DNA of 25,331 bases, taken from IMG/VR virus record IMGVR_UViG_3300010355_001591. The stretch is one strand, 5' to 3'. The position numbers and the translations under genes are program-made. Shown here piece by piece: positions 296-25,331 of this stretch (the stretch's first letter is position 1; each line of letters starts with the position of its first letter). Source of the stretch: a virus. The notes under the pieces were generated by a model. It searched no databases. It saw only the letters and a list, made by a program, of their open reading frames with translations, and was not told the origin of the DNA.

Positions 296-428
296 AAGCT
301 GGGAAATGATAAATGGAATAATAGACACAATAGATTACGAAAGGATTAAGGGGATAAGAAATAAAAACCAGAATTTAGCAGACCATAAAGCAAGAATGGC
401 ATATAGAGAGATGGAAAAAATAATCTAA
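276..428 (+). CDS. Hypothetical protein, 50 aa (MDEKEIKSWEMINGII...)
   Basis: Translated by hand; GGAGG RBS; not in the ORF track. Confidence 0.7.
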   Translation: MDEKEIKSWEMINGIIDTIDYERIKGIRNKNQNLADHKARMAYREMEKII

Positions 429-475
429 CTCTCTATTATTTATTTTTAGAAAAAAAACAAAAATGGAGGTGTAAA

Positions 476-742
476 ATGAAAGCAAATGAAATAAAAACCG
501 TAAGTGAAGTCGATGGTGTTGCAGTAGAGAAAGAGGAGGTAATTGTAGATATGCAAAAAGATGGATGGGTTAATTCAGATGATGAGATCGAAATATTCGG
601 AGATGCTAAAAATCAAGAAGAAAGAGCAAACAGAATGATCGCTTTTTTAAGGAGATATCAGAGCGTTCTGCAAGATGAAACCATCGCCGAAATAGAGGGG
701 GCAGAAGCTCTCTCTATCAAACAGAGAAACACGAAGGTGTGA
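476..742 (+). CDS. Hypothetical acidic protein, 88 aa
   Basis: GGAGGTG RBS; stop overlaps the next gene. Confidence 0.75.
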   Translation: MKANEIKTVSEVDGVAVEKEEVIVDMQKDGWVNSDDEIEIFGDAKNQEERANRMIAFLRRYQSVLQDETIAEIEGAEALSIKQRNTKV

Positions 743-948
743 AAATGGACAAGATAGAACAACATTTTGAATGCGACCTTGATTGGTCACAATCTTATGC
801 CCTTTTCGAAAAATTGGGCGAGGCCATAATATTGAAAAAAATGCAGGAATTAAACGATGAAGAAAGACAAAACTTTGAAATGAGTGTCCAATTTAATATA
901 GAGTTTTACACACGATCAATCTTTGCGTGGCGACATGAGGATGATTAA
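739..948 (+). CDS. Hypothetical protein, about 69 aa (GTG start, or ATG at 745)
   Basis: AAGGTG RBS; operon position. Confidence 0.7.
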   Translation: MKMDKIEQHFECDLDWSQSYALFEKLGEAIILKKMQELNDEERQNFEMSVQFNIEFYTRSIFAWRHEDD

Positions 949-985
949 AATTGGAGGCAATAAAAATGGATGAAAAAGAAATAAA
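948..985 (+). repeat. 38-bp direct repeat, copy 2
   Basis: Identical to 258-295. Confidence 0.9.
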
Positions 986-1280
986 TATGCGGGAGGTTGA
1001 ATATTTCAGCTTCTTCGGGGCTGAGATAGCAAGTGAATATTTCAGCCAGGATGCTGGGATGCTGGAATTTTTAGGACTGTTAGACGAGGATGAAAAAGAA
1101 AGCCTTGTGCTCGATATCATGGTCAACCATGATAAAGAGACGGCACAATGGAGCATCGGAAACTGGAGGGGTGAGACGGTGCACCTATCTATGAAAACGA
1201 GCACGATCGATAACTCACGCTGGGAGGAGGACGATTATTATGGCGTGATGGAGTTCCTTAGATCGACTGGAGTGATCTAA
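966..1280 (+). CDS. Hypothetical acidic protein, 104 aa
   Basis: ATG at 966 follows GGAGG; the TTG at 951 used by the track lies within the RBS. Confidence 0.75.
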   Translation: MDEKEINMREVEYFSFFGAEIASEYFSQDAGMLEFLGLLDEDEKESLVLDIMVNHDKETAQWSIGNWRGETVHLSMKTSTIDNSRWEEDDYYGVMEFLRSTGVI

Positions 1281-1282
1281 AA

Positions 1283-1387
1283 ATGGAGTATGAGTATTGG
1301 AGTTTAGAACAAAAAATAGATCGGCTGGAGAGAAAGCTACGGGAGATCGAGACGAGATTGTTAACTTTAGAGGAGATGATAATATAA
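1283..1387 (+). CDS. Small coiled-coil protein, 34 aa (MEYEYWSLEQKIDRLERKLREIETRLLTLEEMII)
   Basis: Translated by hand; GGAGTGA RBS; heptad Leu/Ile pattern. Confidence 0.6.
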   Translation: MEYEYWSLEQKIDRLERKLREIETRLLTLEEMII

Positions 1388-1408
1388 AAATAAAAATGGA
1401 GGTTAAAA

Positions 1409-1594
1409 ATGAGAGCAATATTTGAGAATGTGAAAGAGGCAATAGCGTGCAAAGTAGATAAGTACGGGCATATCAACGGGTTTAAAACCTATGCAGGGAA
1501 ATCCTGCATAGTAATAATACTTGAGGAGGATACAAATGAGAATTGCGAACGAGATACAACGGAGACGGGTGAGAAGGATTGTAAATTTGACTAA
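1409..1594 (+). CDS. Small protein, possibly DUF2080/AbrB-like swapped-hairpin DNA binder
   Basis: GGAGGT RBS; KVDKYGHI...YAGKSCIVIILE pattern; family call is tentative. Confidence 0.5.
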   Translation: MRAIFENVKEAIACKVDKYGHINGFKTYAGKSCIVIILEEDTNENCERDTTETGEKDCKFD

Positions 1595-1895
1595 ACATGA
1601 GATCACGATCGGGAATGTAATTGTCCCTCCATCTGGCAAAGTGATTCGGTGTAAAAAGAACAAACTACTATCTGAGATTGTCGAGTATGAGGGGAAAGAG
1701 ATAGAGGTGTATGAGTATGAGTATAGAGAAGTAAAATCAATACCGGAGCGAGAGGATGGGACGATTTATCTCACGTCTTATCCTGTCGCAAAAATACTCT
1801 GCCGGGATGATATCTATTGCATGGGTGAGGTTGTCAGAGATGAGAGCGGAAGAATACTCGGTGCGATGTGCCTATCAAATTTTGAGAAGAGATGA
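1536..1895 (+). CDS. Conserved phage/CRISPR-linked family protein (NLTxH...PPSG...VRD..GRI.G); candidate Crn4-like ring nuclease
   Basis: IVNLTKHEI, VPPSGKVIR, IPEREDGTIYLTS, RDD, VVRDESGRILG; ATG at 1536 follows GAGGAGG. Confidence 0.55.
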   Translation: MRIANEIQRRRVRRIVNLTKHEITIGNVIVPPSGKVIRCKKNKLLSEIVEYEGKEIEVYEYEYREVKSIPEREDGTIYLTSYPVAKILCRDDIYCMGEVVRDESGRILGAMCLSNFEKR

Positions 1896-1905
1896 TAGGA
1901 AAAAG

Positions 1906-2061
1906 ATGAGTAATATGTTTTTATCAAAACTGCCGCCGTGTACGGCTCGGCTTGGAAAGATGCAATATGGATATGCAATTATATTTTGTGATGTGCTGTA
2001 TTCCAAAATAGATCCTGAAGAATGTTTGATATGCAAATTTAGGCAGGATGTGGAGGGGTAA
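1906..2061 (+). CDS. Small Cys-containing protein, 51 aa (C...C...CLIC), possible Zn binder
   Basis: 3' part of track ORF 1756-2061; start reassigned to ATG at 1906. Confidence 0.55.
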   Translation: MSNMFLSKLPPCTARLGKMQYGYAIIFCDVLYSKIDPEECLICKFRQDVEG

Positions 2062-2208
2062 ATGGGATATGAAATGTTAACAGCGGATGAGAAAAAATAT
2101 TATGTCAAATGTCTAAAAGAGGCAAAAAATATTGTTGGGATATCTGGCGATCCGATATCAGATGCAATATTAATATCTGCAGTATTTTTAAGGCTATCCG
2201 GCCGATGA
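2062..2208 (+). CDS. Hypothetical protein, 48 aa (MGYEMLTADEKKYYVKCLKEAK...)
   Basis: Translated by hand; GGAGGGG RBS; abuts the previous stop. Confidence 0.6.
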   Translation: MGYEMLTADEKKYYVKCLKEAKNIVGISGDPISDAILISAVFLRLSGR

Positions 2209-2327
2209 TAAATGAAGGTGGACTATAAAATGGTAGCAGCTGAATAGCCCTAAATATAATATACATTATAATATTTAAACGTTTCCTTTTTTGTTCTTTG
2301 TATGTATTTTTAACTGGGGGGTAAAAT

Positions 2328-2537
2328 ATGGTAAATAATAAAAAAAATAATGATGAGGACTCCATCGATGATATTCTCGATGATGACGAGTTCGTAAGAA
2401 TGCTCGTATATCTGTTAAAGAGGAAGGCAGGGGATATTGCAGATGAGATGCGTACCGGCAAAGTATCATCTAAAAACGGTGAGATCGTAAAAGATCTCTG
2501 TCAAATGGTTGTTGATCGGGAGAGAGGGGAGAGGTAA
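2328..2537 (+). CDS. Hypothetical protein, 69 aa, translationally coupled to the helicase
   Basis: GGGGGGT RBS; TAATG overlap at 2535-2539. Confidence 0.7.
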   Translation: MVNNKKNNDEDSIDDILDDDEFVRMLVYLLKRKAGDIADEMRTGKVSSKNGEIVKDLCQMVVDRERGER

Positions 2538-3937
2538 TGGATGAGAAAGAGCAGGCAAAAAAGATCGAGTTTTTGGATCGGATTTTGGATTATGACGGCA
2601 ACGAATATCTTGACGAGTTGTGCTTGGATGAGAAATACAGACCAGATATTGGTAAGATCCTTGCACGACTTTTTTCTATTTATAGTTTCAAAACATCAGA
2701 GGATACGGAGACGGTATATTATTTTGATGCTGGGATATATCGAGAGGCTGAGACGTTCATAAAAAACAAGATCGAGGAGATATTTCAAGAGAAGGCGACA
2801 ACGCATCTGGTTATCGAGATTATCAATCACATTAAACGAGCAACGTATGTGCCACGGGAAGAGTTCAACAAAAATAAAAACTATCTGCCTGTGAAAAATG
2901 GATTGATCAATCTTGAGACGTTTGAGATTGAGCCGTTTGATCCAGAGAAGATTTTCACCTTCAAGATAGACGTAGAGTATGATCCCACGGCTGACTGCCC
3001 CCTGTTCAAAAAAACCATATCAGAGGTGGTAGATGAAGAGGATATTCCCGTTCTTCAGGAGTTCTTCGGATACTGTTTGTATCCTGCAATGCCGACTCAT
3101 AAGTCTTTCTGGCTATACGGAGGGGGTAGAAACGGCAAATCAACGGTTGTCAATATTTTAAAATATCTGCTTGGGGATGGAAATTATGCCTCTGTACCAT
3201 TAGATCAATTATACGGGGATAACCGGTTCTCAAAGGCGAATCTGTATGGAAAGATGGCAAACATTATACCTGAACCAAACTCAAAACGAGAGATGGAGAC
3301 CACTGAGTTTAAAATGTTGACTGGTGGTGATACTGTCGATGCCGAGGTGAAAAATAAACAAAAACCAATACGGTTTGTCAACTTTGCAAAGTTCATCATA
3401 CATGGGAACAGATTTCCAACAGTAAAAGATAACACAACCGCATTCTGGGAGAGGATGCTCGTCATCAAATTTCCAAATACATTTTTAGATGACGATCCTG
3501 CAACAATAAAGGATCTCGATAAGAATATTGTTGAAGCAGGTGAGATGCCAGGAATATTAAACTGGTGCATAGACGGACTGAGGAGATTGATGAATAATAA
3601 CTTCAGATTTACGTTGAGCAAGGGTATTGAGGATATTAAACTGGAGTTTATGAAGATGTCAAACTCTGCGATGGCATTTGTCGATGAGGCATGCACACTA
3701 AAGCCTGATCTATGGATTGTAGTAGCAGATCTTTACAATCACTATAAGGATTGGTGTGAGGAGAATGGTGTTGATTCTGTATCCAAGGATAAGTTCTCTA
3801 AAACATTGGGAGATATACCACGAGTCAAATTAGATAGAAAGAGAGTAGATGGTATATTAAAGAGAGTGGCGATAGGTATAAACATAAAAGATGATAATAT
3901 CGATGATAAAGAGGATTTGGATAATTGGATATCATGA
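2537..3937 (+). CDS. D5/P4-family SF3 replicative helicase (D5_N, ATPase, C-terminal winged helix); no primase domain
   Basis: VKNGLINLET...F.PFDP (D5_N); Walker A GGGRNGKST; LYGKMANII; FKMLTGGD; AFWERMLVIKF; LYNHYKDWCEENG. Confidence 0.92.
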   Translation: MDEKEQAKKIEFLDRILDYDGNEYLDELCLDEKYRPDIGKILARLFSIYSFKTSEDTETVYYFDAGIYREAETFIKNKIEEIFQEKATTHLVIEIINHIKRATYVPREEFNKNKNYLPVKNGLINLETFEIEPFDPEKIFTFKIDVEYDPTADCPLFKKTISEVVDEEDIPVLQEFFGYCLYPAMPTHKSFWLYGGGRNGKSTVVNILKYLLGDGNYASVPLDQLYGDNRFSKANLYGKMANIIPEPNSKREMETTEFKMLTGGDTVDAEVKNKQKPIRFVNFAKFIIHGNRFPTVKDNTTAFWERMLVIKFPNTFLDDDPATIKDLDKNIVEAGEMPGILNWCIDGLRRLMNNNFRFTLSKGIEDIKLEFMKMSNSAMAFVDEACTLKPDLWIVVADLYNHYKDWCEENGVDSVSKDKFSKTLGDIPRVKLDRKRVDGILKRVAIGINIKDDNIDDKEDLDNWIS

Positions 3938-8195: not shown

Positions 8196-8366
8196 ATGAT
8201 GATCTATCAGGGATTTTGGAATTATGCATGCGATCTTATCCAGATACCTATACAAGAGACAATCAAATGGGTTTGTCTCTCTCTCATATATTTGGATTGG
8301 ATTTCATTGGTTAAAACTGGTATGGATTCTATGATAGGATATATATCTGGAATGGTGAATAAATAA
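8196..8366 (+). CDS. Amphipathic microprotein, 56 aa (MMIYQGFWNYACDLIQIP...)
   Basis: Translated by hand; TAATG overlap with the next ORF. Confidence 0.6.
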   Translation: MMIYQGFWNYACDLIQIPIQETIKWVCLSLIYLDWISLVKTGMDSMIGYISGMVNK

Positions 8367-8575
8367 TGGATTGTGTGGCGGCATGGATAGGAAACTGTGT
8401 AGGAATGGGAGATCTTGCAATAAAGACCACACTTCTTTTATGCCCATCAATAGATCCATTATGTATCGGATTGGCTTTGCGTGAGCTAATATCGCCGGTA
8501 ATACCTAGACTGAACGAGATCGCAGCATCAGTAAGAAGCATGCTAGAAGGATTAGGCGGGTTGGTGGGAGGCTAA
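8366..8575 (+). CDS. Cys/Gly-containing hydrophobic protein, 69 aa
   Basis: ORF track; GGTGA RBS; translationally coupled. Confidence 0.7.
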   Translation: MDCVAAWIGNCVGMGDLAIKTTLLLCPSIDPLCIGLALRELISPVIPRLNEIAASVRSMLEGLGGLVGG

Positions 8576-8578
8576 AAC

Positions 8579-8806
8579 ATGGATATGGTGTTTATATTAG
8601 GCGCTGGATTTGTTGGTGATGTTGCATCGATCTGTATGTCTGATATACCGCTCTGTATCAATTGGTTCGCGGCTGCATTATCACAGACGATACCAACGTT
8701 AACATCGTTTGTTGCACCTGTGTGCGGTTATGTCATAAATGTTGGGGCTAATTTTATAGTTAGCTCTGCGTCTCAGATTGTCAATATGATTCTTGGAACG
8801 GGATGA
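8579..8806 (+). CDS. Cys-containing hydrophobic protein, 75 aa
   Basis: ORF track; GGAGG RBS. Confidence 0.7.
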   Translation: MDMVFILGAGFVGDVASICMSDIPLCINWFAAALSQTIPTLTSFVAPVCGYVINVGANFIVSSASQIVNMILGTG

Positions 8807-8812
8807 TCAGTT

Positions 8813-9034
8813 ATGGAAACAATTTTAATCGTTTGGATGTATTTATTGGTGTTGTTTGTCTTGCTGCCGCTCATCATCATATTTTTAATAATGCGGGTGC
8901 TCCCATACAATATCAAACGGCTTGAAGATAAGATTGAAGATAAGACTGATGGTGTGCGTGGCGGTATCGAAAGATTTATAAACAACATTAACGATTTAAT
9001 AGAAATAGAAATAAATAATCGTAAAAAAACATAA
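8813..9034 (+). CDS. Bitopic membrane protein, 73 aa (N-terminal TM, charged helical tail)
   Basis: ORF track; hydrophobic residues 4-30. Confidence 0.75.
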   Translation: METILIVWMYLLVLFVLLPLIIIFLIMRVLPYNIKRLEDKIEDKTDGVRGGIERFINNINDLIEIEINNRKKT

Positions 9035-9094
9035 TGATGATTTAACCAACTCACCGAGCAAGGCGTCACAAAGGATTAAAAGAGGAGATAAATC

Positions 9095-12000
9095 ATGGTT
9101 GGATTTGAAGCATTCCTGCTGTTGTGCATCGTGTTTCCGGCGATGCTCTTCCTCTTTATCCTAATCCTGTTCTTATTCTTATCGGTTTTTGTGGCGGGAT
9201 CATTCTTTATCTGCGGAACGGCAGTCTGTATTTTGCTTGTAGGAGTCTCACTGATAACAGTTCTCGGTCTCGGAGGCATAGCATCCCTTGTTTGTCTCGG
9301 ATTACTGTTCTGCACCGGACTTTGCATTTTAACGGCCGGATTTTTAACCTGTTGTAGTTTACCGTGCCTACCCTGCTTCTTATGTGCCTTGCTGATACCC
9401 CTATCGTTTGTCGGGGTTGGCATCTGTTTTGCTTTTGCATTATTCGGGCTGGCTATCCCGATCGTCTGTGTATCGATCACGATACCTGCATTTTTAATAT
9501 TCATGTTCTCAATGGCAGTTTTGCCACCCCCGCTATCCTGTCTGCTTTGCGGTTGTCTGTCTGTTCTATATATAATATATCCATTTGGTCTAATTTGTGG
9601 ATCTATTGGTGGTTTAATCGGTTGCTATTTATTCTGCGGGATTGGGTGTCTGCCAGGATGCATTATAGGATGGTTATGTGGGTTATGTCTTGATTTTGTT
9701 CTTATTTGTATAATTATCGTTGGCATCTTCATGTTTATAATAGGAGTCGTCTTCTGTATCATAGGACCATTCTTCTGCATCATAGAACCATTCCTCTGTA
9801 TCATAGGATTCATCCCATGTATCATAGGAGCCTACTTCTGTATCATAGGATTCATCCCATGTATCCTCGGACCCGTCTTCTGTATCATAGGAGCCTACTT
9901 CTGTATCATCGGAGCCGTCATCTGTATCATTCCAATATCTGGTTGGATCATCGGACCCATTATGATTATCATTGGAGCCGTCATCTGTATCATCGGAGCC
10001 TACTTCTGCATCATAGAACCATTCCTCTGTATCATAGGAGTCACCCCATGTATCATCGGAGCCGTCTTCTGTATCATAGGATTCATCCCATGTATCGCAG
10101 GAGCCGTCTTCTGTATCATAGGAGCCTACTTCTGTATCATCGGAGCCGTCTTCCGTATCATCGGACCCATTATGATTATCATTGGATCAGTCCTCATCAT
10201 TATAGGCATCTCTGCCACCTCCGCCCCGTTTTTATGTATCGCTCTCCTCCTCGCCATCGCCGTCTTCATCGTAACCAACATTATCCGCCACATCATTGAA
10301 CTCGTTCTGATCTGCCTCGTCCTTATCATCGTGCCGTGCCTAACCGTGCCGATCGTGGTGTTCGGGTTCCTGGCGATGCTGGGGTTCGCCTTATGTTTGG
10401 GGCTGATACCGTGTGTAGGGTTTGCGGTTTGTATAGGATGGATCATCTGCGGGTTTATTAGCTGGATCGGGAGCTGGCTGGGAATATTTATACTTTATAT
10501 AATATACGTGGCAATAGGAGTGGTATTCTTAATTATATTTGTAATTCTTCTTATTATAGGAATAATTGCCGCTATTTGTCAGATAGTACCTTGTATTGGA
10601 ACACCTTGTTATATGTTTATTGTGGTCTTAATGTTAATAATCCTAACAGTTTTTGCCTTGTTCTATTCAGTATATGGACCGTGCATAATGATTCTTACAA
10701 GTATATTTGGGATTTTTGCTTTCCCATTCTCAATACCAATGTTATTATTTAGCATTCTCTGGTTATTAACGGCACAAACTGTTATGACCATAGTATTTGC
10801 AATGATGATCTTTCTTGGCGCATTATTTTTATCATATTCGCCACTTACGTTTTGCCCGATCATTGGATATATAATGTTTTTCATCTTCGGTATTCCTACC
10901 CTAATTGGTGCAATCATTATTCTTGGCATACTTAGTATTATTTGCATTATCATCGCTGTAATATTTGGTGCTCTAACCCTTGCATCCGCATTCTTCTGTA
11001 ACTGGCTCGGTTTCGTAATCGTCCCGATAATCATCTTCATAGAAAGCATAATCGTTCTGGTAATCCTCGTCTCGATCATCGTGCTTATATCGGCTGCGGC
11101 ACTGCTAACAGGGATAATGTTCATAGTATCGGTCGTGGCAGTATTATGCTGTATCGGAGGGCTATTTGTCTCATCGGCACTCTGCATTACGGGGATAATC
11201 GGATCGATCGCCTGTCTCATCCTATCCATAATCGGGGCGATCTGCATCGTTCTCGGATCGATCTGTTTTATAACATTTGTCTTATCTTGTATCTGTTCGC
11301 TGGTGGTCTGTTCGCCTACCTTATTTCTTGCCTTGCTTTTAACTGGAGCGATCGGTCTCGTTCTGGCGTTAGCCATCATATTCTGTTCTCTGGTTCTCGG
11401 AGTGATGTGTCTTGCCGTAGCTCCGTTAACGCTGACTGTATCAATCATAGCGTTATCTGTGGTTCTATGCGGATTGATTGCCTTGGTGCTGGCGTTATCA
11501 ATTTTATGTGCAGGGATAACCATCGTGCTGGCGTTATGTCTGGCGGCTACACTGGCGATTATTGGCGTCTTCTTATGCTTAGCCATAATTTGTTTATCTT
11601 TGACCGCATTGGTTTTATCACTTGGAATAATCGCATCAGGTCTATTGATAATGCTATTCGGATGTTGTCTATTCCCATTCGGAGGTTTAATCTGTATAAT
11701 ACTCGGATTGAGCGTGGCATGTCTCGGATTAACCGCATTGGTCTTAGCTTTAACAACGCTTTGCTTATCATCGGCAGCCTGTTTACTACTCTCGATCGGA
11801 TTCTGTCTCACCGCTCTTTGTTGCATGATGGCAACCGCCATACCGTTCTTTACGCTTGTAATAATCTGTCTCATACTAACGATTACGTTTATAGCGGGAT
11901 CGGTGCTCTGTCTTTCCCTATTGATCCTGCTGGTTAGCATAACTGGAATTGTTGCTGCCATGCTTCTCTGTCTGTTCGGATTTATTATTTTTGCTCTCGC

Positions 12001-12448
12001 ATTATCGATTCTGACTTTAGGCTGTGCTGGTTTCACCTGTCTGATGATCTCAATAGCGTTAGCATTGGCAATAACCGCCTTAATAGCAGGAATCCTCCTC
12101 CCGATCTGCCTGATTTTAACCGCCGGAGCTTGGGGGATCTTCTTTATTCTTCTTTCAATATTGATCGGGCTGGGGATAATCTTTGGAATACTTGTTATAA
12201 TAGCATTAATTTTTATCTGTATCATTTTCTTAATCCTGTTGACGCCACCAGCTCTTTTGTTAGCCATCTGTTTGGCGTTGGTTGTTGTGGCAGCATTTGC
12301 GGCCTGTATTGTGGCTGCAATAGCAGGGCTTTATATCGTAGTAACAATCGCTCAATCTCTGCTTGTGGGCGGGGGCGGCGGTTTAAGTATGCTCTGGTCG
12401 GCTTGCTTGTCGTCTGCTCAAACAATATATGCAGGGATATTCGGATAA
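9095..12448 (+). CDS. Giant, essentially uncharged Cys-rich hydrophobic protein, 1117 aa; function unknown
   Basis: 3.35-kb uninterrupted ORF with GAGGAG RBS; hand count 0 K, 2 R, 1 D, 5 E and about 90 C. Confidence 0.85.
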   Translation: MVGFEAFLLLCIVFPAMLFLFILILFLFLSVFVAGSFFICGTAVCILLVGVSLITVLGLGGIASLVCLGLLFCTGLCILTAGFLTCCSLPCLPCFLCALLIPLSFVGVGICFAFALFGLAIPIVCVSITIPAFLIFMFSMAVLPPPLSCLLCGCLSVLYIIYPFGLICGSIGGLIGCYLFCGIGCLPGCIIGWLCGLCLDFVLICIIIVGIFMFIIGVVFCIIGPFFCIIEPFLCIIGFIPCIIGAYFCIIGFIPCILGPVFCIIGAYFCIIGAVICIIPISGWIIGPIMIIIGAVICIIGAYFCIIEPFLCIIGVTPCIIGAVFCIIGFIPCIAGAVFCIIGAYFCIIGAVFRIIGPIMIIIGSVLIIIGISATSAPFLCIALLLAIAVFIVTNIIRHIIELVLICLVLIIVPCLTVPIVVFGFLAMLGFALCLGLIPCVGFAVCIGWIICGFISWIGSWLGIFILYIIYVAIGVVFLIIFVILLIIGIIAAICQIVPCIGTPCYMFIVVLMLIILTVFALFYSVYGPCIMILTSIFGIFAFPFSIPMLLFSILWLLTAQTVMTIVFAMMIFLGALFLSYSPLTFCPIIGYIMFFIFGIPTLIGAIIILGILSIICIIIAVIFGALTLASAFFCNWLGFVIVPIIIFIESIIVLVILVSIIVLISAAALLTGIMFIVSVVAVLCCIGGLFVSSALCITGIIGSIACLILSIIGAICIVLGSICFITFVLSCICSLVVCSPTLFLALLLTGAIGLVLALAIIFCSLVLGVMCLAVAPLTLTVSIIALSVVLCGLIALVLALSILCAGITIVLALCLAATLAIIGVFLCLAIICLSLTALVLSLGIIASGLLIMLFGCCLFPFGGLICIILGLSVACLGLTALVLALTTLCLSSAACLLLSIGFCLTALCCMMATAIPFFTLVIICLILTITFIAGSVLCLSLLILLVSITGIVAAMLLCLFGFIIFALALSILTLGCAGFTCLMISIALALAITALIAGILLPICLILTAGAWGIFFILLSILIGLGIIFGILVIIALIFICIIFLILLTPPALLLAICLALVVVAAFAACIVAAIAGLYIVVTIAQSLLVGGGGGLSMLWSACLSSAQTIYAGIFG
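9755..10195 (+). repeat. Degenerate 21-bp tandem repeat (about 21 units) encoding heptads CIIG(A/P/F)xx
   Basis: TGTATCAT(A/C)GGA recurs every 21 bp; units include CIIGAYF, CIIGFIP, CIIEPFL and CIIGAVF. Confidence 0.9.
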
Positions 12449-12548
12449 AACCTTGAACAATCTCCTTTTTTGAGAAAGAAAAAACGATAATATTAAATAT
12501 TTAAATAATCTATATTTCTAATATTATAATAATAGATCAGGATAAAAT

Positions 12549-12692
12549 ATGGGCTTTATATCATGGGCAACTAATTTTGTGTGTATGTTTTGGAATGGGA
12601 TAGGAGGGTTTGCCGCTCTCAATGTAATAGGAAAACATATATTTAATCTGTTCGAATATCTTGGTAATATTGTTGCTAGCATAGGGAAGTGA
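12549..12692 (+). CDS. Amphipathic microprotein, 47 aa (MGFISWATNFVCMFWNGIGG...SIGK)
   Basis: Translated by hand; follows an AT-rich promoter-like gap. Confidence 0.6.
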   Translation: MGFISWATNFVCMFWNGIGGFAALNVIGKHIFNLFEYLGNIVASIGK

Positions 12693-12699
12693 TCTGTAA

Positions 12700-13662
12700 A
12701 TGGGCATGAGAGATAAATCTCTACAGGCATCATCTATTTTTATCGTGGTATTACTCTTAATGACCATAACCGTTCCCGTGATGACAGCACCCACTGCATC
12801 TGCTACAGCATGCAACATACTCCCTCCGTGGGGGGTGGGGATAGGCTTATGTGATTTTGTTGGATGCTGCGATGTTGTATCGATCCTAAACGTCTTCAAT
12901 TGTTTCAACCTTATAAACATTCTTGGGATTGTTGCAAACTGTTTCTCTGGAGTTAATTATTCTGTAGAATGCGGCTGGAACTTTCTATCGTATTGTATCT
13001 GGCCGTGTACTCTCTTTAACTGTTTTAACGTTCTTGATATGTTTTCTGGAAGAGTAACATGTTTCAATCTGATACAGGTGATGTCTGGGATATGCAACTT
13101 TGCTAATGTAATTGATATTCTATCTGGTGCATGTATTAATCTCATGAGCGTTGTTAAACTTGGATCTGGTCTATTTCCACCGTTCATCGCATCTGGTGGC
13201 TGTCTAAATATAGGAACTGGATGTAATCCGTGCAATCCTCTTCTTCCTGTTTGTGTTAATACGGGGTTAACAGATTGCCTAAATGTGTTATTCCTGCCAC
13301 TTACTATCATAATGTCGGTAGTATCATCGATAGCACTGCCGTTTATGTCGTTGTGGGGCACTGCTTTATCCCCGGTCTTAACTGGTATGAGTTATAATGA
13401 GATGGGTGTGGCTGTTATTGGGTGTGTAGAGAATCCAATGAGCATTATACCTATGGTTACTGGATGTATTAAATCGTTTTTATATTCGATCGGATTAATA
13501 GACATACTTGGAGATCTCGGATCTATCTGTTCCGGTTGCCTTGGCTGGATACTATCAAAAATTATGGGGTTATGCCAATCTGCTGGTGTGTTAAACTGGA
13601 TTACAAATTTCATGTTTGGATCGATGGCTAAATATCTGCCTATGAACATAGGGTTTGCGTAA
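12700..13662 (+). CDS. Signal-peptide-bearing Cys-rich hydrophobic protein, 320 aa
   Basis: N-terminal h-region ending TASA; short repeats such as NCFNLINIL/NCFNVLDMF; many Cys. Confidence 0.8.
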   Translation: MGMRDKSLQASSIFIVVLLLMTITVPVMTAPTASATACNILPPWGVGIGLCDFVGCCDVVSILNVFNCFNLINILGIVANCFSGVNYSVECGWNFLSYCIWPCTLFNCFNVLDMFSGRVTCFNLIQVMSGICNFANVIDILSGACINLMSVVKLGSGLFPPFIASGGCLNIGTGCNPCNPLLPVCVNTGLTDCLNVLFLPLTIIMSVVSSIALPFMSLWGTALSPVLTGMSYNEMGVAVIGCVENPMSIIPMVTGCIKSFLYSIGLIDILGDLGSICSGCLGWILSKIMGLCQSAGVLNWITNFMFGSMAKYLPMNIGFA

Positions 13663-13664
13663 CT

Positions 13665-14426
13665 ATGGCTAAGAGAAAAATATTCATTAAGGGAGATCCT
13701 CAACGAGAGGTTAGAGGCAAGAAGTTACAGCGTGAATCGGAAGAGATGATGCGGCAGGCTCGACCGATGATGCGGTGGATGAAATATATCAAGTATTTTA
13801 TGCCACTGATGATCATTGCGTTCATATTTATGATCTTGATGTTCATCCCCGGATCTCCTGTCATGGGCTGGATGATGAAGAATATCATGGGTAACATGTT
13901 TAAAAGCGAGGCAGGGGCAGCTGATATACTAAACCCAGATTCTCCGATGTTTAAAAAAATGATGGAGAACATGGAGACAAACCCGGAATGGATGAAATCA
14001 ATGATCGAACAACATCCGGAGATGCTCGAGGGAGTGATAGATGAAAGAATGATGAAGAACATGATGAACGCCGATACGATCGAGACGATGATCACCGCAA
14101 TGCCTCCAGAAACGATGAACAAGATGATGGCTCAAATGATGAAAGATAACCCAGCAATGCTACAGGATATGATGACCGATATGATCAAGAACAACCCGCA
14201 GATGCTGCAATCGATGTTCTCAAACATGGATGAGGCTACGATGAACCAGATGTTCTCCACGATTATGAAAGACTATAACATGGTAATGACGGGTGGAGAG
14301 ATGGTGATCAAGTTGCCTCCAGATACAGCCAAACTGATAGGTCACGAGTATGTGGTGGTAGAGATCACGAGCGATATGGGCATGAAAGATATGCAGTTCT
14401 CTATGCAGAAAAAACAAAATACTTAA
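13665..14426 (+). CDS. Met-rich (about 20%) membrane-anchored helical-repeat protein, 253 aa
   Basis: TM FMPLMIIAFIFMILMFIP; repeated MMxxNP(E/A/Q)ML motifs; about 50 Met by hand count. Confidence 0.85.
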   Translation: MAKRKIFIKGDPQREVRGKKLQRESEEMMRQARPMMRWMKYIKYFMPLMIIAFIFMILMFIPGSPVMGWMMKNIMGNMFKSEAGAADILNPDSPMFKKMMENMETNPEWMKSMIEQHPEMLEGVIDERMMKNMMNADTIETMITAMPPETMNKMMAQMMKDNPAMLQDMMTDMIKNNPQMLQSMFSNMDEATMNQMFSTIMKDYNMVMTGGEMVIKLPPDTAKLIGHEYVVVEITSDMGMKDMQFSMQKKQNT

Positions 14427-18343: not shown

Positions 18344-18571
18344 ATGGCAAAAGCATTTGACATACAAGGCATAATGTATTTAGCAATCGGATTAATCATT
18401 ACGGGTGCTCTACTTCCAGTATCTTTGAACATGTTCACAAGTGCAGATATTGATTTTACAGGATCGTTGTCTGGGCTTGAGAATCTCTGGTCGTTAATAC
18501 CCATGATGGTTGTTCTTGCAATAGCGATTGCAGTTATATATTACGCCATGGACTCTATGAGAAACCAGTAA
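18344..18571 (+). CDS. Spindle-shaped virus major capsid protein-like (SSV1 VP1/VP3, His1 type), 75 aa
   Basis: Two hydrophobic helices (LAIGLIITGALLP and LWSLIPMMVVLAIAIAVIYY) joined by a short polar linker, matching the VP1 pattern GIVLLPV...LLNLVP..IL; flanked by AT-rich promoter-like and T-rich terminator-like tracts. Confidence 0.75.
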   Translation: MAKAFDIQGIMYLAIGLIITGALLPVSLNMFTSADIDFTGSLSGLENLWSLIPMMVVLAIAIAVIYYAMDSMRNQ

Positions 18572-18681: not shown

Positions 18682-18984
18682 ATGAAATTAATGAAAACAA
18701 CCAGGGATTTTATTCATGATGATAACGGGGCATTCACCCTCAAAGAGATGGTAGAGGCAATTATTGCTCTCGGAGTGGGCATCATTCTTGCTGGGATACT
18801 TTTACCGATTGCGTTTCAGATGTTTGGTGGATTGCCAGAGAATCTGGCGGTTGGACCAGATATGCAGCCGACACTATTGGCGACCATCTGGGGATACATA
18901 CCTGTTATAGTTGTTGTAATGCTCATGATCGGATTGATATTTGCTATTATCGGCTGGTTCGGCGGCGGGGAAGAAGGATCATAA
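18682..18984 (+). CDS. Second MCP paralogue with a class III (prepilin-like) leader, 100 aa
   Basis: GIILAGILLPI...IWGYIPVIVVVMLMIG parallels MCP1; leader RDFIHDDNG/AFTLKE. Confidence 0.7.
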   Translation: MKLMKTTRDFIHDDNGAFTLKEMVEAIIALGVGIILAGILLPIAFQMFGGLPENLAVGPDMQPTLLATIWGYIPVIVVVMLMIGLIFAIIGWFGGGEEGS

Positions 18985-21441: not shown

Positions 21442-22281
21442 ATGAACCCAATTCTTTGTTATCCCGGTGGAAAGAGAGGACTAAAAAAAGAGATCTTAAA
21501 AAGAATTCCCCCGCATGACACATATATTGAGCCTTTTGTTGGTGGTGGGAGCGTCTTCTTTGCAAAGCCGAGAGCTAAAAAAGAGATTATCAATGATAAA
21601 GATAAAGATTTAATAGATTTTTACAAAGCATGCAGAAGACCTGACGTATCTTTTAAAAAGGCAAATTTACGTGCATCACGAGAACGATATGAGAAATATA
21701 AAAAAAGTAAGCCTAAAACCCCGCAATCAAAAGTAAACCGTTTCCTATACCTTAATAAACGGAGTTTTGGTGGTGTGATGAATAATGGTTATTATGCACC
21801 GTCCACGGCTAAAACGAAAGGGAAGGGAGGAGGACAGGAGGGTATTAAAAAGATCGGTAGAGAACAACAGGACCGACTTCGTGGGGTAAAGATAGAGAAC
21901 AGAGATTTTGAGAAAGTTATTAAAGATTACGATAACAAGAACGCCTTTATCTATATGGATCCACCATATTATGGAGAATCAAGAGGGCTGTATAAGCATG
22001 ATGATAGATCAGCCACACCAGAGCGTGTCTTACAGGCAGCTGCAAGAGCAAAAGGTAAATGTCTCGTCTCATATAATGATTGCCCGGAAGTAAGAAAAAT
22101 CGCTCGTAAATTAGGACTTTATATATACCAAGTGCGGACGAAGTATTCCTTGAATAGTGCAAGTAATAATAAAGATAAAACAGAGTTGTTAATAAGCAAC
22201 TATCCAATGAGGAATGGTAAACCTGTAAAAACAAAGACGGGGAGGGGGCAAACGATAAAGAGGGATATAAATGGTCACTAA
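21442..22281 (+). CDS. Dam/D12-class N6-adenine DNA methyltransferase
   Basis: YPGGKR; motif I YIEPFVGGGSVFF; IINDKD; NRDFEKVI; catalytic motif IV FIYMDPPY; LVSYND; ELLISNY. Confidence 0.93.
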   Translation: MNPILCYPGGKRGLKKEILKRIPPHDTYIEPFVGGGSVFFAKPRAKKEIINDKDKDLIDFYKACRRPDVSFKKANLRASRERYEKYKKSKPKTPQSKVNRFLYLNKRSFGGVMNNGYYAPSTAKTKGKGGGQEGIKKIGREQQDRLRGVKIENRDFEKVIKDYDNKNAFIYMDPPYYGESRGLYKHDDRSATPERVLQAAARAKGKCLVSYNDCPEVRKIARKLGLYIYQVRTKYSLNSASNNKDKTELLISNYPMRNGKPVKTKTGRGQTIKRDINGH

Positions 22282-23221
22282 AAAAAAGAATTTAAAAGAG
22301 TGGGCTCGTGTTGACTGGGCAAGAAATGCAGTATCATCACATGCAAACATGATCGATTATGGAAAAAAGGCAAAAATAATAGTCCCCGATACTCAAGATG
22401 CCTTTACGGACTGGTATTATAAAGGTGGGCATAAAAAATACGACTTCGAGGGAAAAGACCATCCGATACCTCAAGCAAAAAAAGTTGCAAACACACATTA
22501 CAAATATGCGACAGCCTCCGGTGCCCGCAACGCTGGTATTATTGCGAAACGTGCAGAAAAAATCCTGTTAAATAATTTTACCAGAAAAGAAAGAAGCCAG
22601 ATGGGAAAAATAATCTTTAGCGTTAGACCTATTGTAAAAAGTGAGGATGCAGCAGGAATGATCGAATATAGAGGAAGGGGGGATGCTTCCGTTATAACTA
22701 TTGATGATAGTTATGTTGATGATGAAGACATATTCACGCATGAATTAGTTCATGCTCGACTGTACGGAACGAATACTGAGCCAAAGGATAGAGATACCCA
22801 TGAAAAAATGACAGAACTGGAGACAGTAGGAAGGATATCTCACCCAGAGAAAAAAAAGGCAGGGTATTATCACTATCTTAAAAAAAGTTCTATAAGTATG
22901 ATAGATGCCATAAAGCACGATAGGATATTATTGACTGGTTCGATGACGAAAAGCAGGAAAGGCGATAGATTTGTTGCAGATGTACGTAAAAAATATAATG
23001 AGTCAATGATAAAAGACGCTCATTTCTCTCCAGCAGAAAAATTAGACCGATATTACCAAGTCATATTGCCTGATGGTGAAAAAATATCTATCCATCAAAG
23101 AGGCAAACCAAATGCAAAAGTCTCACTATCTAAGATTGTTCAAAATTTTAAAAAGAGGTATGGGAAAGATATCAAAGTATACGAGTGGAGAGACGGTAAG
23201 AGAGTACTATTAAGGAGGTGA
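22271..23221 (+). CDS. Basic protein with a zincin-like HExxH motif (putative metallopeptidase), 316 aa
   Basis: AAG..(n)..ITID...IFTHELVHARL...E; overlaps the MTase stop. Confidence 0.6.
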   Translation: MVTKKKNLKEWARVDWARNAVSSHANMIDYGKKAKIIVPDTQDAFTDWYYKGGHKKYDFEGKDHPIPQAKKVANTHYKYATASGARNAGIIAKRAEKILLNNFTRKERSQMGKIIFSVRPIVKSEDAAGMIEYRGRGDASVITIDDSYVDDEDIFTHELVHARLYGTNTEPKDRDTHEKMTELETVGRISHPEKKKAGYYHYLKKSSISMIDAIKHDRILLTGSMTKSRKGDRFVADVRKKYNESMIKDAHFSPAEKLDRYYQVILPDGEKISIHQRGKPNAKVSLSKIVQNFKKRYGKDIKVYEWRDGKRVLLRR

Positions 23222-24691: not shown

Positions 24692-25252
24692 TCATTTGAT
24701 GAAATTCATCTTTATTATATCAGCCTCGTCTTCAGCAGTATAATTTTCTATCGTCTGGATGTTCGTATGCCGTATCGCTTTGGAGATCAGGTTTGTAGGC
24801 ACACCTTCACGCCCCATCTTGGCGATCCATGAATACCGAAGAGAGTGAGTGTTGATCTTGTAATATCGCATTGCAAACATCTTAACCCCATTCAATACCT
24901 TATCAAAAGAATAGTCCAGATCTAAATATTGTTTTTTCACGGCAGACGGTATCTTGATCAGGGCATCAACATCTTTGCCCTTGCTCAGTTTTTTACGTTT
25001 CCGTGCCCTTATCTTTTGTATTCTCTCATTGTTATTTTTGAAACTCAAGACCGCCTCAACAGCCTCTGATATCCTTGAACCGTTCTCTATCTGAGTCAAG
25101 AGAATTGAAGTATAAAGAAGACGGGTAAGAACTGTTGCCGGTACTGGTCTCTTTTTCAATTCGTTATACTCTTTTTCTTTGGCAAGATCTCGAAGGTCAT
25201 TCTTAAACCTCTGATCCCATTCATCAAAATCCAATCTTTTATCCCAGCTCAT
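24692..25252 (-). CDS. Compact tyrosine recombinase (integrase/resolvase), 186 aa
   Basis: Catalytic R (NGSRISEA), K (RKRK), HxxR (THSLRY), H (IRHTN) and Y (IENY). Confidence 0.88.
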   Translation of the reverse strand: MSWDKRLDFDEWDQRFKNDLRDLAKEKEYNELKKRPVPATVLTRLLYTSILLTQIENGSRISEAVEAVLSFKNNNERIQKIRARKRKKLSKGKDVDALIKIPSAVKKQYLDLDYSFDKVLNGVKMFAMRYYKINTHSLRYSWIAKMGREGVPTNLISKAIRHTNIQTIENYTAEDEADIIKMNFIK

Positions 25253-25331
25253 TGTTATCTTATACAGTCATTTATGGATATAAAGATAACACTTTAACAT
25301 CTACACGTTACCATATCACCATAAGATAACA
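25205..25331 (+). repeat. Terminal direct repeat, right copy (circularity overlap)
   Basis: Identical to 1-127. Confidence 0.97.

Follow-up and report, generated by a model that had tools for sequence, protein, structure and literature searches.

Spindle-shaped archaeal viruses of the His1/SSV type build their capsid from small, very hydrophobic proteins. In SSV19 the major capsid proteins (MCPs) are hydrophobic alpha-hairpins that touch one another and slide by hydrophobic contacts, their strands begin on a hydrophobic helical bundle of a tail protein, and lipids occupy the clefts that are hydrophobic (PMC9351363). The virus record IMGVR_UViG_3300010355_001591 of IMG/VR, analysed here over its whole 25,331 nucleotides (the window), codes for MCPs of this type and also for P0001, an exceptionally hydrophobic, cysteine-rich protein of 1117 residues that is nearly free of charge. 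Its open reading frame (ORF) at 9095-12448 on the plus strand, which runs from an ATG start through 1117 codons to a stop, is a genuine, conserved and selected protein-coding gene that occupies 13% of the viral genome.

P0001 (~115 kDa) has no Lys, two Arg, one Asp, five Glu and one His, located at E5, D200, E231, E308, R354, R398, H399, E402 and E650. Charged residues represent 0.8% of the protein and its 90 cysteines ~8%; the abundant residues are Ile (229), Leu (194), Gly (106), Ala (103), Phe (96) and Val (89), and there are 42 Pro. These counts were made by script and agree exactly with those obtained by hand in the original prediction, a note written from the DNA letters (~90 Cys in its case). 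Its claim that roughly the last 450 residues lack charge was borne out as well, since E650 is the last charged residue and the carboxyl-terminal 467 amino acids have none. The grand average of hydropathy (GRAVY) is +2.32. The lowest Kyte-Doolittle mean over 11 residues is +0.45, found at about residue 1097 in the carboxyl-terminal Gly run, and no segment appears exposed to water except a tail of ~20 residues at the carboxyl terminus; in relatives that are more diverged, this tail alone is polar. We know of no protein of comparable length with a GRAVY near 2.3 and less than 1.5% charged residues. At the nucleotide level, the region is triplet-structured and not merely T-rich because codon position 2 is strongly skewed (56.5% T, 2.7% A) while position 3 has an ordinary composition. 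Mononucleotide shuffles of the region yield a longest open frame of ~120 codons on average and of 225 codons at most. Codons ending in C (ATC, GTC, GCC, TTC, ACC) are favoured by the gene more than by the rest of the genome.

Relatives of the locus, designated here by L numbers, were fetched using as queries the downstream 320-aa protein and the protein annotated on the antisense strand. Four loci are near-identical to the window (L001, L018, L019 and L020; 99.4-99.8% identity) and seven relatives are diverged (L021, L014, L011, L023, L003/L004, L012 and L013), going from 90% down to 44% amino-acid identity. Homologues are complete in L023 (784 aa), L012 (~975 aa) and L003 (1131 aa), the partial ones having 450-1039 aa. 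A single uninterrupted hydrophobic frame is kept in L003, L011, L012, L013, L014, L018, L021 and L023. All relatives have a GRAVY of 2.3-2.5 and at most 13 charged residues. Their Cys number 31-117, with 76-117 in those of 784 aa or more.

The ratio of nonsynonymous to synonymous substitution rates (dN/dS, or omega, by the Nei-Gojobori method) was computed for all six frames between the window and its relatives. The sense frame of P0001 has the lowest omega of the six, with values of 0.135-0.16 in the carboxyl-terminal module and ~0.32 for the whole protein, and codon divergence is highest at position 3, followed by position 1 and then position 2. A P0001 copy from another assembly, 99.4% identical, differs by 25 substitutions and no insertion or deletion (indel). 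When contigs of four public runs were aligned on window positions 8300-13700, the strain indels listed within the ORF were multiples of 3 nt or compensated pairs, while those in the 3' spacer were not in frame. The original prediction had pointed to frame-breaking polymorphisms, to a lack of purifying selection and to a standard transporter fold with polar loops as findings that would speak against it: the strain contigs displayed no polymorphism of this kind, dN/dS is well below 1 (0.135-0.32), and P0001 has neither a match in Pfam, PHROG or the ESM Atlas nor a hydrophilic window. The Shine-Dalgarno-like GAGGAG that precedes the ATG is the same in L011, with purine-rich equivalents in L003 and L012, and AGAGGA/GGAGG sites are found ahead of other genes of the same block. 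The P0001 stretch occurs also in contigs from RNA libraries of three studies, from which strand, ends and level are unreadable and in which DNA carry-over is possible.

Public gene calls choose antisense ORFs at the P0001 locus in L001, L003, L004, L011-L014 and L023. They are recorded as 'hypothetical proteins' of 152-699 aa in the window, L003 (1614-4946, minus strand), L011, L012, L013, L014 and L023, and in L023 they capture only the last 102 codons of the sense gene. These calls, together with a synonymous codon usage that correlates with the rest of the genome only weakly for P0001 and does not discriminate it from the antisense ORF (r 0.40 against 0.50), could suggest that the sense ORF is a T-rich by-product or that the antisense ORF is the real gene. 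We consider this extremely improbable. Omega of the antisense frame is 0.24-0.26 against 0.14-0.16 for the sense frame, 1.6-1.8 times higher, with third positions shared between the two. The antisense frame is interrupted at places that differ from one relative to another while the sense frame is never broken over 2.4-3.4 kb, and the listed strain indels respect the latter. Furthermore, codon position 1 of the antisense ORF pairs with the A-poor position 2 of P0001, so that stop codons, which start with T, are few and the opposite frame stays open as an arithmetic consequence of the 2.7% A. Depletion of A at codon position 2 thus misleads gene annotation systematically, and the antisense calls are the resulting artefact.

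The composition of P0001 is maintained by selection. Differences leading to Lys, Arg, Asp, Glu or His number only 3-11 among the 168-528 found per relative, while 28-88 are expected from the mutational neighbourhood of the P0001 codons; the probability of such charge avoidance is 4e-10 to 1e-30 across the comparisons of the window with its relatives. Changes towards charge fall ~10-20-fold short of expectation, and the absence of charge is itself under selection. E650 is the sole acidic residue that is partly conserved. In the carboxyl-terminal module 22 of the 32 cysteines are invariant in four lineages that share at most 54% identity, compared to 37% of all positions (Fisher P 2e-4). Cys is the best conserved of the abundant residues there, followed by Pro (5 of 7 invariant) and Gly (17 of 35). 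Selection actively keeps charges out of P0001 and cysteines in.

P0001 is organized in two conserved modules, close to its amino and carboxyl termini, separated by a hypervariable middle region (Table 1). The carboxyl-terminal module has 52% identity to that of L003 (BLASTP E 3e-80). The middle is replaced in relatives, with contig joints at 10444-10992, and it is through its expansion that the lengths of the complete homologues (784 to 1131 aa) differ. It contains an array of 21-nt repeats that is limited to the lineage of the window and whose copy number varies between strains without leaving the frame. The homologue of L012 (minus strand, ~310-3306) has its own internal duplication of ~100 aa in the carboxyl-terminal module, made of GCC-L-L-P-x-G-G-L-I-C units, which shows that this module tolerates extra inserted helices. 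BLASTP found no significant internal repeats within P0001, and Fourier analysis of Cys, Gly and small residues gave, in any lineage, no peak at 3.5 or 7 residues above the shuffled null outside the array. AlphaFold2 (AF2) modelled the carboxyl-terminal module from a seven-sequence alignment as all helices, of 20-80 residues, at low confidence (predicted local distance difference test, pLDDT, 53.5). The helices are broken at CSPT, APLT, PFGG, AIP, SITG, GCAG, TPP and the Gly run, most of these sites coinciding with invariant Pro, Gly or Cys columns.

Database searches returned very little. A word-indexed protein search with P0001 gave no match near full length. An exhaustive HMMER search of 1.84 billion representative proteins retrieved three true fragments of 45-211 aa (P0018, P0021 and P0032), besides spurious matches to the heptad array; protein databases hold only fragments of this family because gene calls take the antisense ORF. 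No match to the genome, to the carboxyl-terminal module or to the MCP was found by megablast and tblastn in the GenBank phage and archaeal-virus records. Scans of IMG/VR with the giant protein, its 320-aa neighbour, a 293-aa protein, the alignment of the carboxyl-terminal module and the MCP gave no relatives, although low-complexity masking in tblastn may hide the giant. P0001 and its L003 homologue hit no Pfam family even at E<=10, and P0001 has no PHROG or ESM Atlas match. In the literature there was no relevant report on viruses of Methanoliparia or their capsid protein, on Cys-rich hydrophobic proteins of spindle-shaped viruses or on the most hydrophobic proteins. P0001 as an MCP of the PF25665 type was rejected, with no Pfam match at the threshold above and BLASTP E values of at least 0.03 to the MCPs of the window. 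A known polytopic transporter or enzyme fold was rejected too, as P0001 has no match in Pfam, PHROG or the ESM Atlas, only two Lys plus Arg in total and no segment below the +0.45 mean. The protein would also escape tryptic proteomics because it has only two trypsin sites, R354 and R398. Lack of any family match, failure of the comparisons with MCPs, tape-measure proteins and membrane folds, a composition with no known parallel, nearly empty databases and invisibility to trypsin together lead us to regard P0001 as a new type of protein without known relatives, whose function is predicted from sequence.

The first 127 bp of the window are repeated exactly at its end (25205-25331). This terminal direct repeat shows that the genome is circular and that the window contains all of its 25,204 bp. 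One MCP matches the Pfam family PF25665 (His1_capsid) with E 8e-8 and 32.6 bits, above the cutoff of 27, and its paralogue has E 1.7e-3. A D5-type primase-helicase, an AAA ATPase, a Dam methylase and a tyrosine integrase are encoded as well. The window is therefore the genome of a spindle-shaped archaeal virus that belongs to a new lineage of the His1/SSV type. Its probable host is Candidatus (Ca.) Methanoliparia: relative L003 is binned in a metagenome-assembled genome of Ca. Methanolliviera and the G+C content matches (39-41%). Public runs in which the stretch occurs come from activated-sludge and digester, oil-field, crude-oil, wastewater, soil and marine metagenomes, RNA libraries included. 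The P0001 gene is part of a same-strand block (~7.4-21 kb) together with the MCP genes and the gene of a 490-aa Ig-like anchored protein, and is surrounded by ~20 small ORFs coding uncharged Cys/Gly-rich products. We take this capsid-gene block to be the late, structural one.

From these data we infer a location, a topology and a role for P0001. Our preferred reading, held tentatively and somewhat short of even confidence, is that P0001 is a structural protein of the virion or of its assembly site, made of hydrophobic helices with minimal turns that lie in the membrane and in the capsid wall. A structural role in a hydrophobic phase is the most plausible one because the virus is spindle-shaped, with a hydrophobic capsid wall. 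P0001 would be made at the membrane and spend its whole life in the hydrophobic phase, folded as a stack of ~35-50 hydrophobic helices joined by turns of 2-5 Pro, Gly, Ser, Thr or Cys residues. The invariant Cys, Gly and Pro of the terminal modules would provide specific helix packing, while the tolerant, expandable middle would supply hydrophobic bulk. The two-helix capsid protein and the many small peptides without charge from the same block would be its partners in assembly. Rather than being a transporter or an enzyme, P0001 would contribute to the structure or morphogenesis of the hydrophobic wall, for example as a piece that nucleates, caps or fills clefts. Several observations weigh against such a role. 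The AF2 model reaches a pLDDT of only 53.5, and P0001 has no detectable similarity to the MCPs of the window (BLASTP E at least 0.03) or to the neighbouring peptides. Being nearly free of charge, it lacks a positive-inside signal; the original prediction supposed that ordinary Sec insertion may for this reason, and for want of polar loops, be implausible. The highly plastic middle could fit a non-structural membrane role equally well. Finally, a 1.3-kb scaffold (L022, 2-655, plus strand) holds only the first ~200 codons of a homologue, followed by a stop and by sequence unrelated to it, and represents a disrupted copy of the gene or an assembly chimera.

Extreme hydrophobicity would suit equally a protein that is not packaged and forms a charge-free helical raft in the host membrane, remodelling it for budding or egress, keeping out superinfecting viruses or changing permeability. 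A plastic middle with strain-specific repeat expansion is often seen in proteins under host-interaction pressure, and, according to references cited in PMC9351363, the membrane is where assembly and budding of SSV-type viruses take place. We find this explanation fairly unlikely, since the gene is localized within the capsid-gene block and not among early or replication genes, and strongly conserved modules with 22 invariant Cys suggest a defined assembly. The alternative raised in the original prediction, a precursor polyprotein from which small hydrophobic peptides resembling the products of surrounding genes are cut, is quite improbable. The ~20 small uncharged Cys/Gly-rich ORFs, the Gly-rich carboxyl-terminal motifs that P0001 has in common with many small neighbours and the HExxH motif in a 316-aa protein encoded further downstream would agree with it. 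However, BLASTP detects in P0001 neither significant internal repeats nor similarity to neighbouring peptides, its conserved Pro/Gly motifs are unevenly spaced, the family changes in length by whole regions and not by units, and Pfam and PHROG scans of the window proteins detected no protease family.

The original prediction had pictured P0001 as a ruler or scaffold inside the hydrophobic capsid wall. The structural role survives as the most plausible reading in the setting of a spindle-shaped virus, but the single continuous helix of ~168 nm gains no support. That one hydrophobic helix or coiled coil of ~170 nm measures or scaffolds the capsid is very improbable, even if the low-confidence AF2 model of the carboxyl-terminal module is all-helical, the 7-residue array locally sets Cys and Gly on one helical face and protein length varies among relatives as it does in ruler proteins. 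The 42 Pro and 106 Gly speak against such a helix, the low-confidence AF2 model has breaks in the chain, and both residues are conserved above average. No significant periodicity of 3.5 or 7 residues exists outside the array in any lineage, the array itself is polymorphic and confined to a single lineage, and P0001 has no PHROG or Pfam tape-measure match. Going beyond the structural role preferred here, one may imagine that a covalent 'protein lipid' of 800-1100 residues, a new class of protein without any part in contact with water, and the ~20 uncharged peptides build a lipid-free, oil-wettable capsid wall with which the virus would reach Ca. Methanoliparia on crude-oil droplets. In this unlikely scenario the conserved cysteines would form inter-helix contacts or contacts linked through metal or lipid, and proteins of this class would systematically escape metagenomics, through antisense gene calls, and proteomics, through the scarcity of trypsin sites.

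Table 1. Coordinates in the window of the P0001 gene, its modules and neighbouring features
Feature	Position	Strand	Evidence or remarks
P0001 gene, 1117-aa charge-poor Cys-rich hydrophobic protein	9095..12448	+	ORF scan, six-frame omega, homologues
Shine-Dalgarno-like GAGGAG	9082..9087	+	7 nt upstream of the P0001 ATG; sequence reading
Conserved amino-terminal module, aa ~76-160, motifs LPCLPCF and VLPPPLSCLLC	9320..9574	+	Residues 112-151 are 75-85% identical to their counterparts in L003, L012 and L023
Hypervariable expandable middle, aa ~190-700	9662..11194	+	Mostly missing from L023 (784 aa) and L012, or impossible to align there
Tandem array, 21 nt (7 aa), ~20 copies, units CIIGAVF, CIIGFIP, CIIEPFL	9736..10165	+	Tandem Repeats Finder (TRF)
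Conserved carboxyl-terminal module, aa ~712-1050, motifs SCICSLVVCSPTLFL and TGIV.A.LLCLFGF	11228..12244	+	Alignment, omega 0.14
Q-[ST]-x-x-V-G-[AG]-G-G motif and ~20-residue tail, least hydrophobic part	12353..12445	+	Window, L003, L012, L013, L014, L023
Antisense 534-aa shadow ORF, on record as P0058	10663..12267	-	Public gene calls; higher omega; judged a non-gene
Upstream 73-aa protein, one transmembrane segment and charged helix	8813..9034	+	Conserved, syntenic in L003
47-aa peptide, then 320-aa secreted Cys/Asn-rich protein	12549..13662	+	320-aa gene used as query for relatives
Membrane-anchored protein with ~20% Met, STI1/XPC-binding-like repeat domain	13665..14426	+	PF09280; conserved in L003 and L023
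Two His1/SSV1-type two-helix MCP genes	18344-18571 and 18682-18984	+	PF25665, mutual similarity

The order of genes coding the 73-aa transmembrane protein, the giant, the 47-aa peptide, the 320-aa protein and the Met-rich protein is kept in L003 and L023. The 320-aa protein (12700-13662, plus strand) combines a signal peptide with a Cys/Asn-rich domain of high conservation that includes the motifs NYSVECGWNF and TGCNPCN; its AF2 model has a pLDDT of 36.8. Homologues are encoded in archaeal chromosomes of ~54% G+C (Euryarchaeota UBA287 and relatives; L006, L008, L009 and L010), between FtsZ/C11-peptidase genes and a ribosomal-protein operon. A 1331-aa protein shares this archaeal locus (L008, 9980-15297). 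Its GRAVY is 1.33, ~250 of its residues form a Gly/Ile/Leu stretch with almost no charge, and its carboxyl terminus is similarly Gly-rich; BLASTP found no significant similarity between it and the viral giants.

The Met-rich protein matches PF09280 over three stretches (34.3 bits, cutoff 26.4), its L003 homologue remaining below threshold (22.3 bits), and gives also a weak match to a ubiquilin domain. STI1-like XPC-binding domains bind hydrophobic helices in eukaryotic chaperones. The Met-rich protein might act on hydrophobic helices or be a ligand of soft metals, and its basic amino terminus ahead of the single transmembrane segment suggests that the Met-rich domain faces the cell exterior. 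Within its gene, positions 13757-13929 (~170 nt) gather 23 of the changes that separate the window from L001/L002, nearly all of them synonymous, a cluster that suggests a recombination patch between strains. The 316-aa protein mentioned above (22271-23221, plus strand) is basic and carries its HExxH motif as HELVH. It gave no hit in Pfam or PHROG, and a metalloprotease and an ImmA-like regulator are the candidate identities.

P0001 shows that evolution can produce a protein of ~115 kDa almost devoid of charged or polar segments, and that purifying selection can maintain it. It challenges common assumptions on the biogenesis of membrane proteins, namely the positive-inside rule and the need for loops, and offers a natural test case for how such a chain is handled by Sec/YidC-type machinery or by a viral alternative. 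It also suggests that spindle-shaped virions may build their hydrophobic wall in a manner so far unexplored, in viruses whose predicted hosts matter for methanogenic oil degradation. The antisense gene calls in the assemblies examined reveal a systematic blind spot for proteins of this kind, which tryptic proteomics would miss as well.

Among known systems, the MCPs His1 VP21 and SSV1-SSV19 VP1 (PF25665) come from the same kind of virus and, like P0001, are very hydrophobic and helical, or predicted to be so; here they are encoded 6 kb downstream of it. Hydrophobic contacts between their helices hold them together in a wall that has no conventional bilayer (PMC9351363). MCPs are however proteins of 70-100 aa with two helices, those of the window having a GRAVY of ~1.0, 9-14% charged residues and no Cys, while P0001 is 11-15 times longer, has a GRAVY of 2.3 and 0.8% charged residues, is rich in Cys and lacks detectable similarity to them. 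The three-helix bundle of SSV19 VP4 and glycerol dialkyl glycerol tetraether (GDGT) lipids nucleate MCP strands or fill hydrophobic gaps, such as the clefts where tail and capsid meet, which is the role proposed for P0001. The tail anchors of fuselloviruses, however, belong to large soluble proteins that are glycosylated, and the other fillers are lipids. To our knowledge, nothing comparable to P0001 in size or composition has been reported among them, and no homology emerged, no search aimed at it having been made. Tape-measure proteins of tailed phages are, as P0001 is or is predicted to be, long, helical, variable in length and encoded in a structural module, but they are largely soluble and charged with few hydrophobic segments, and P0001 matches none of their families in PHROG or Pfam. 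Proteolipids such as the ATP synthase c subunit, and other chloroform-soluble membrane proteins, resemble P0001 as predicted here in their lipid-like solubility, helical hairpins, minimal loops and packing through small residues. Proteolipids have only ~8-16 kDa, conserve a functional carboxylate and carry polar residues in their loops, whereas P0001 has ~115 kDa and only E650 as a partly conserved acidic residue.

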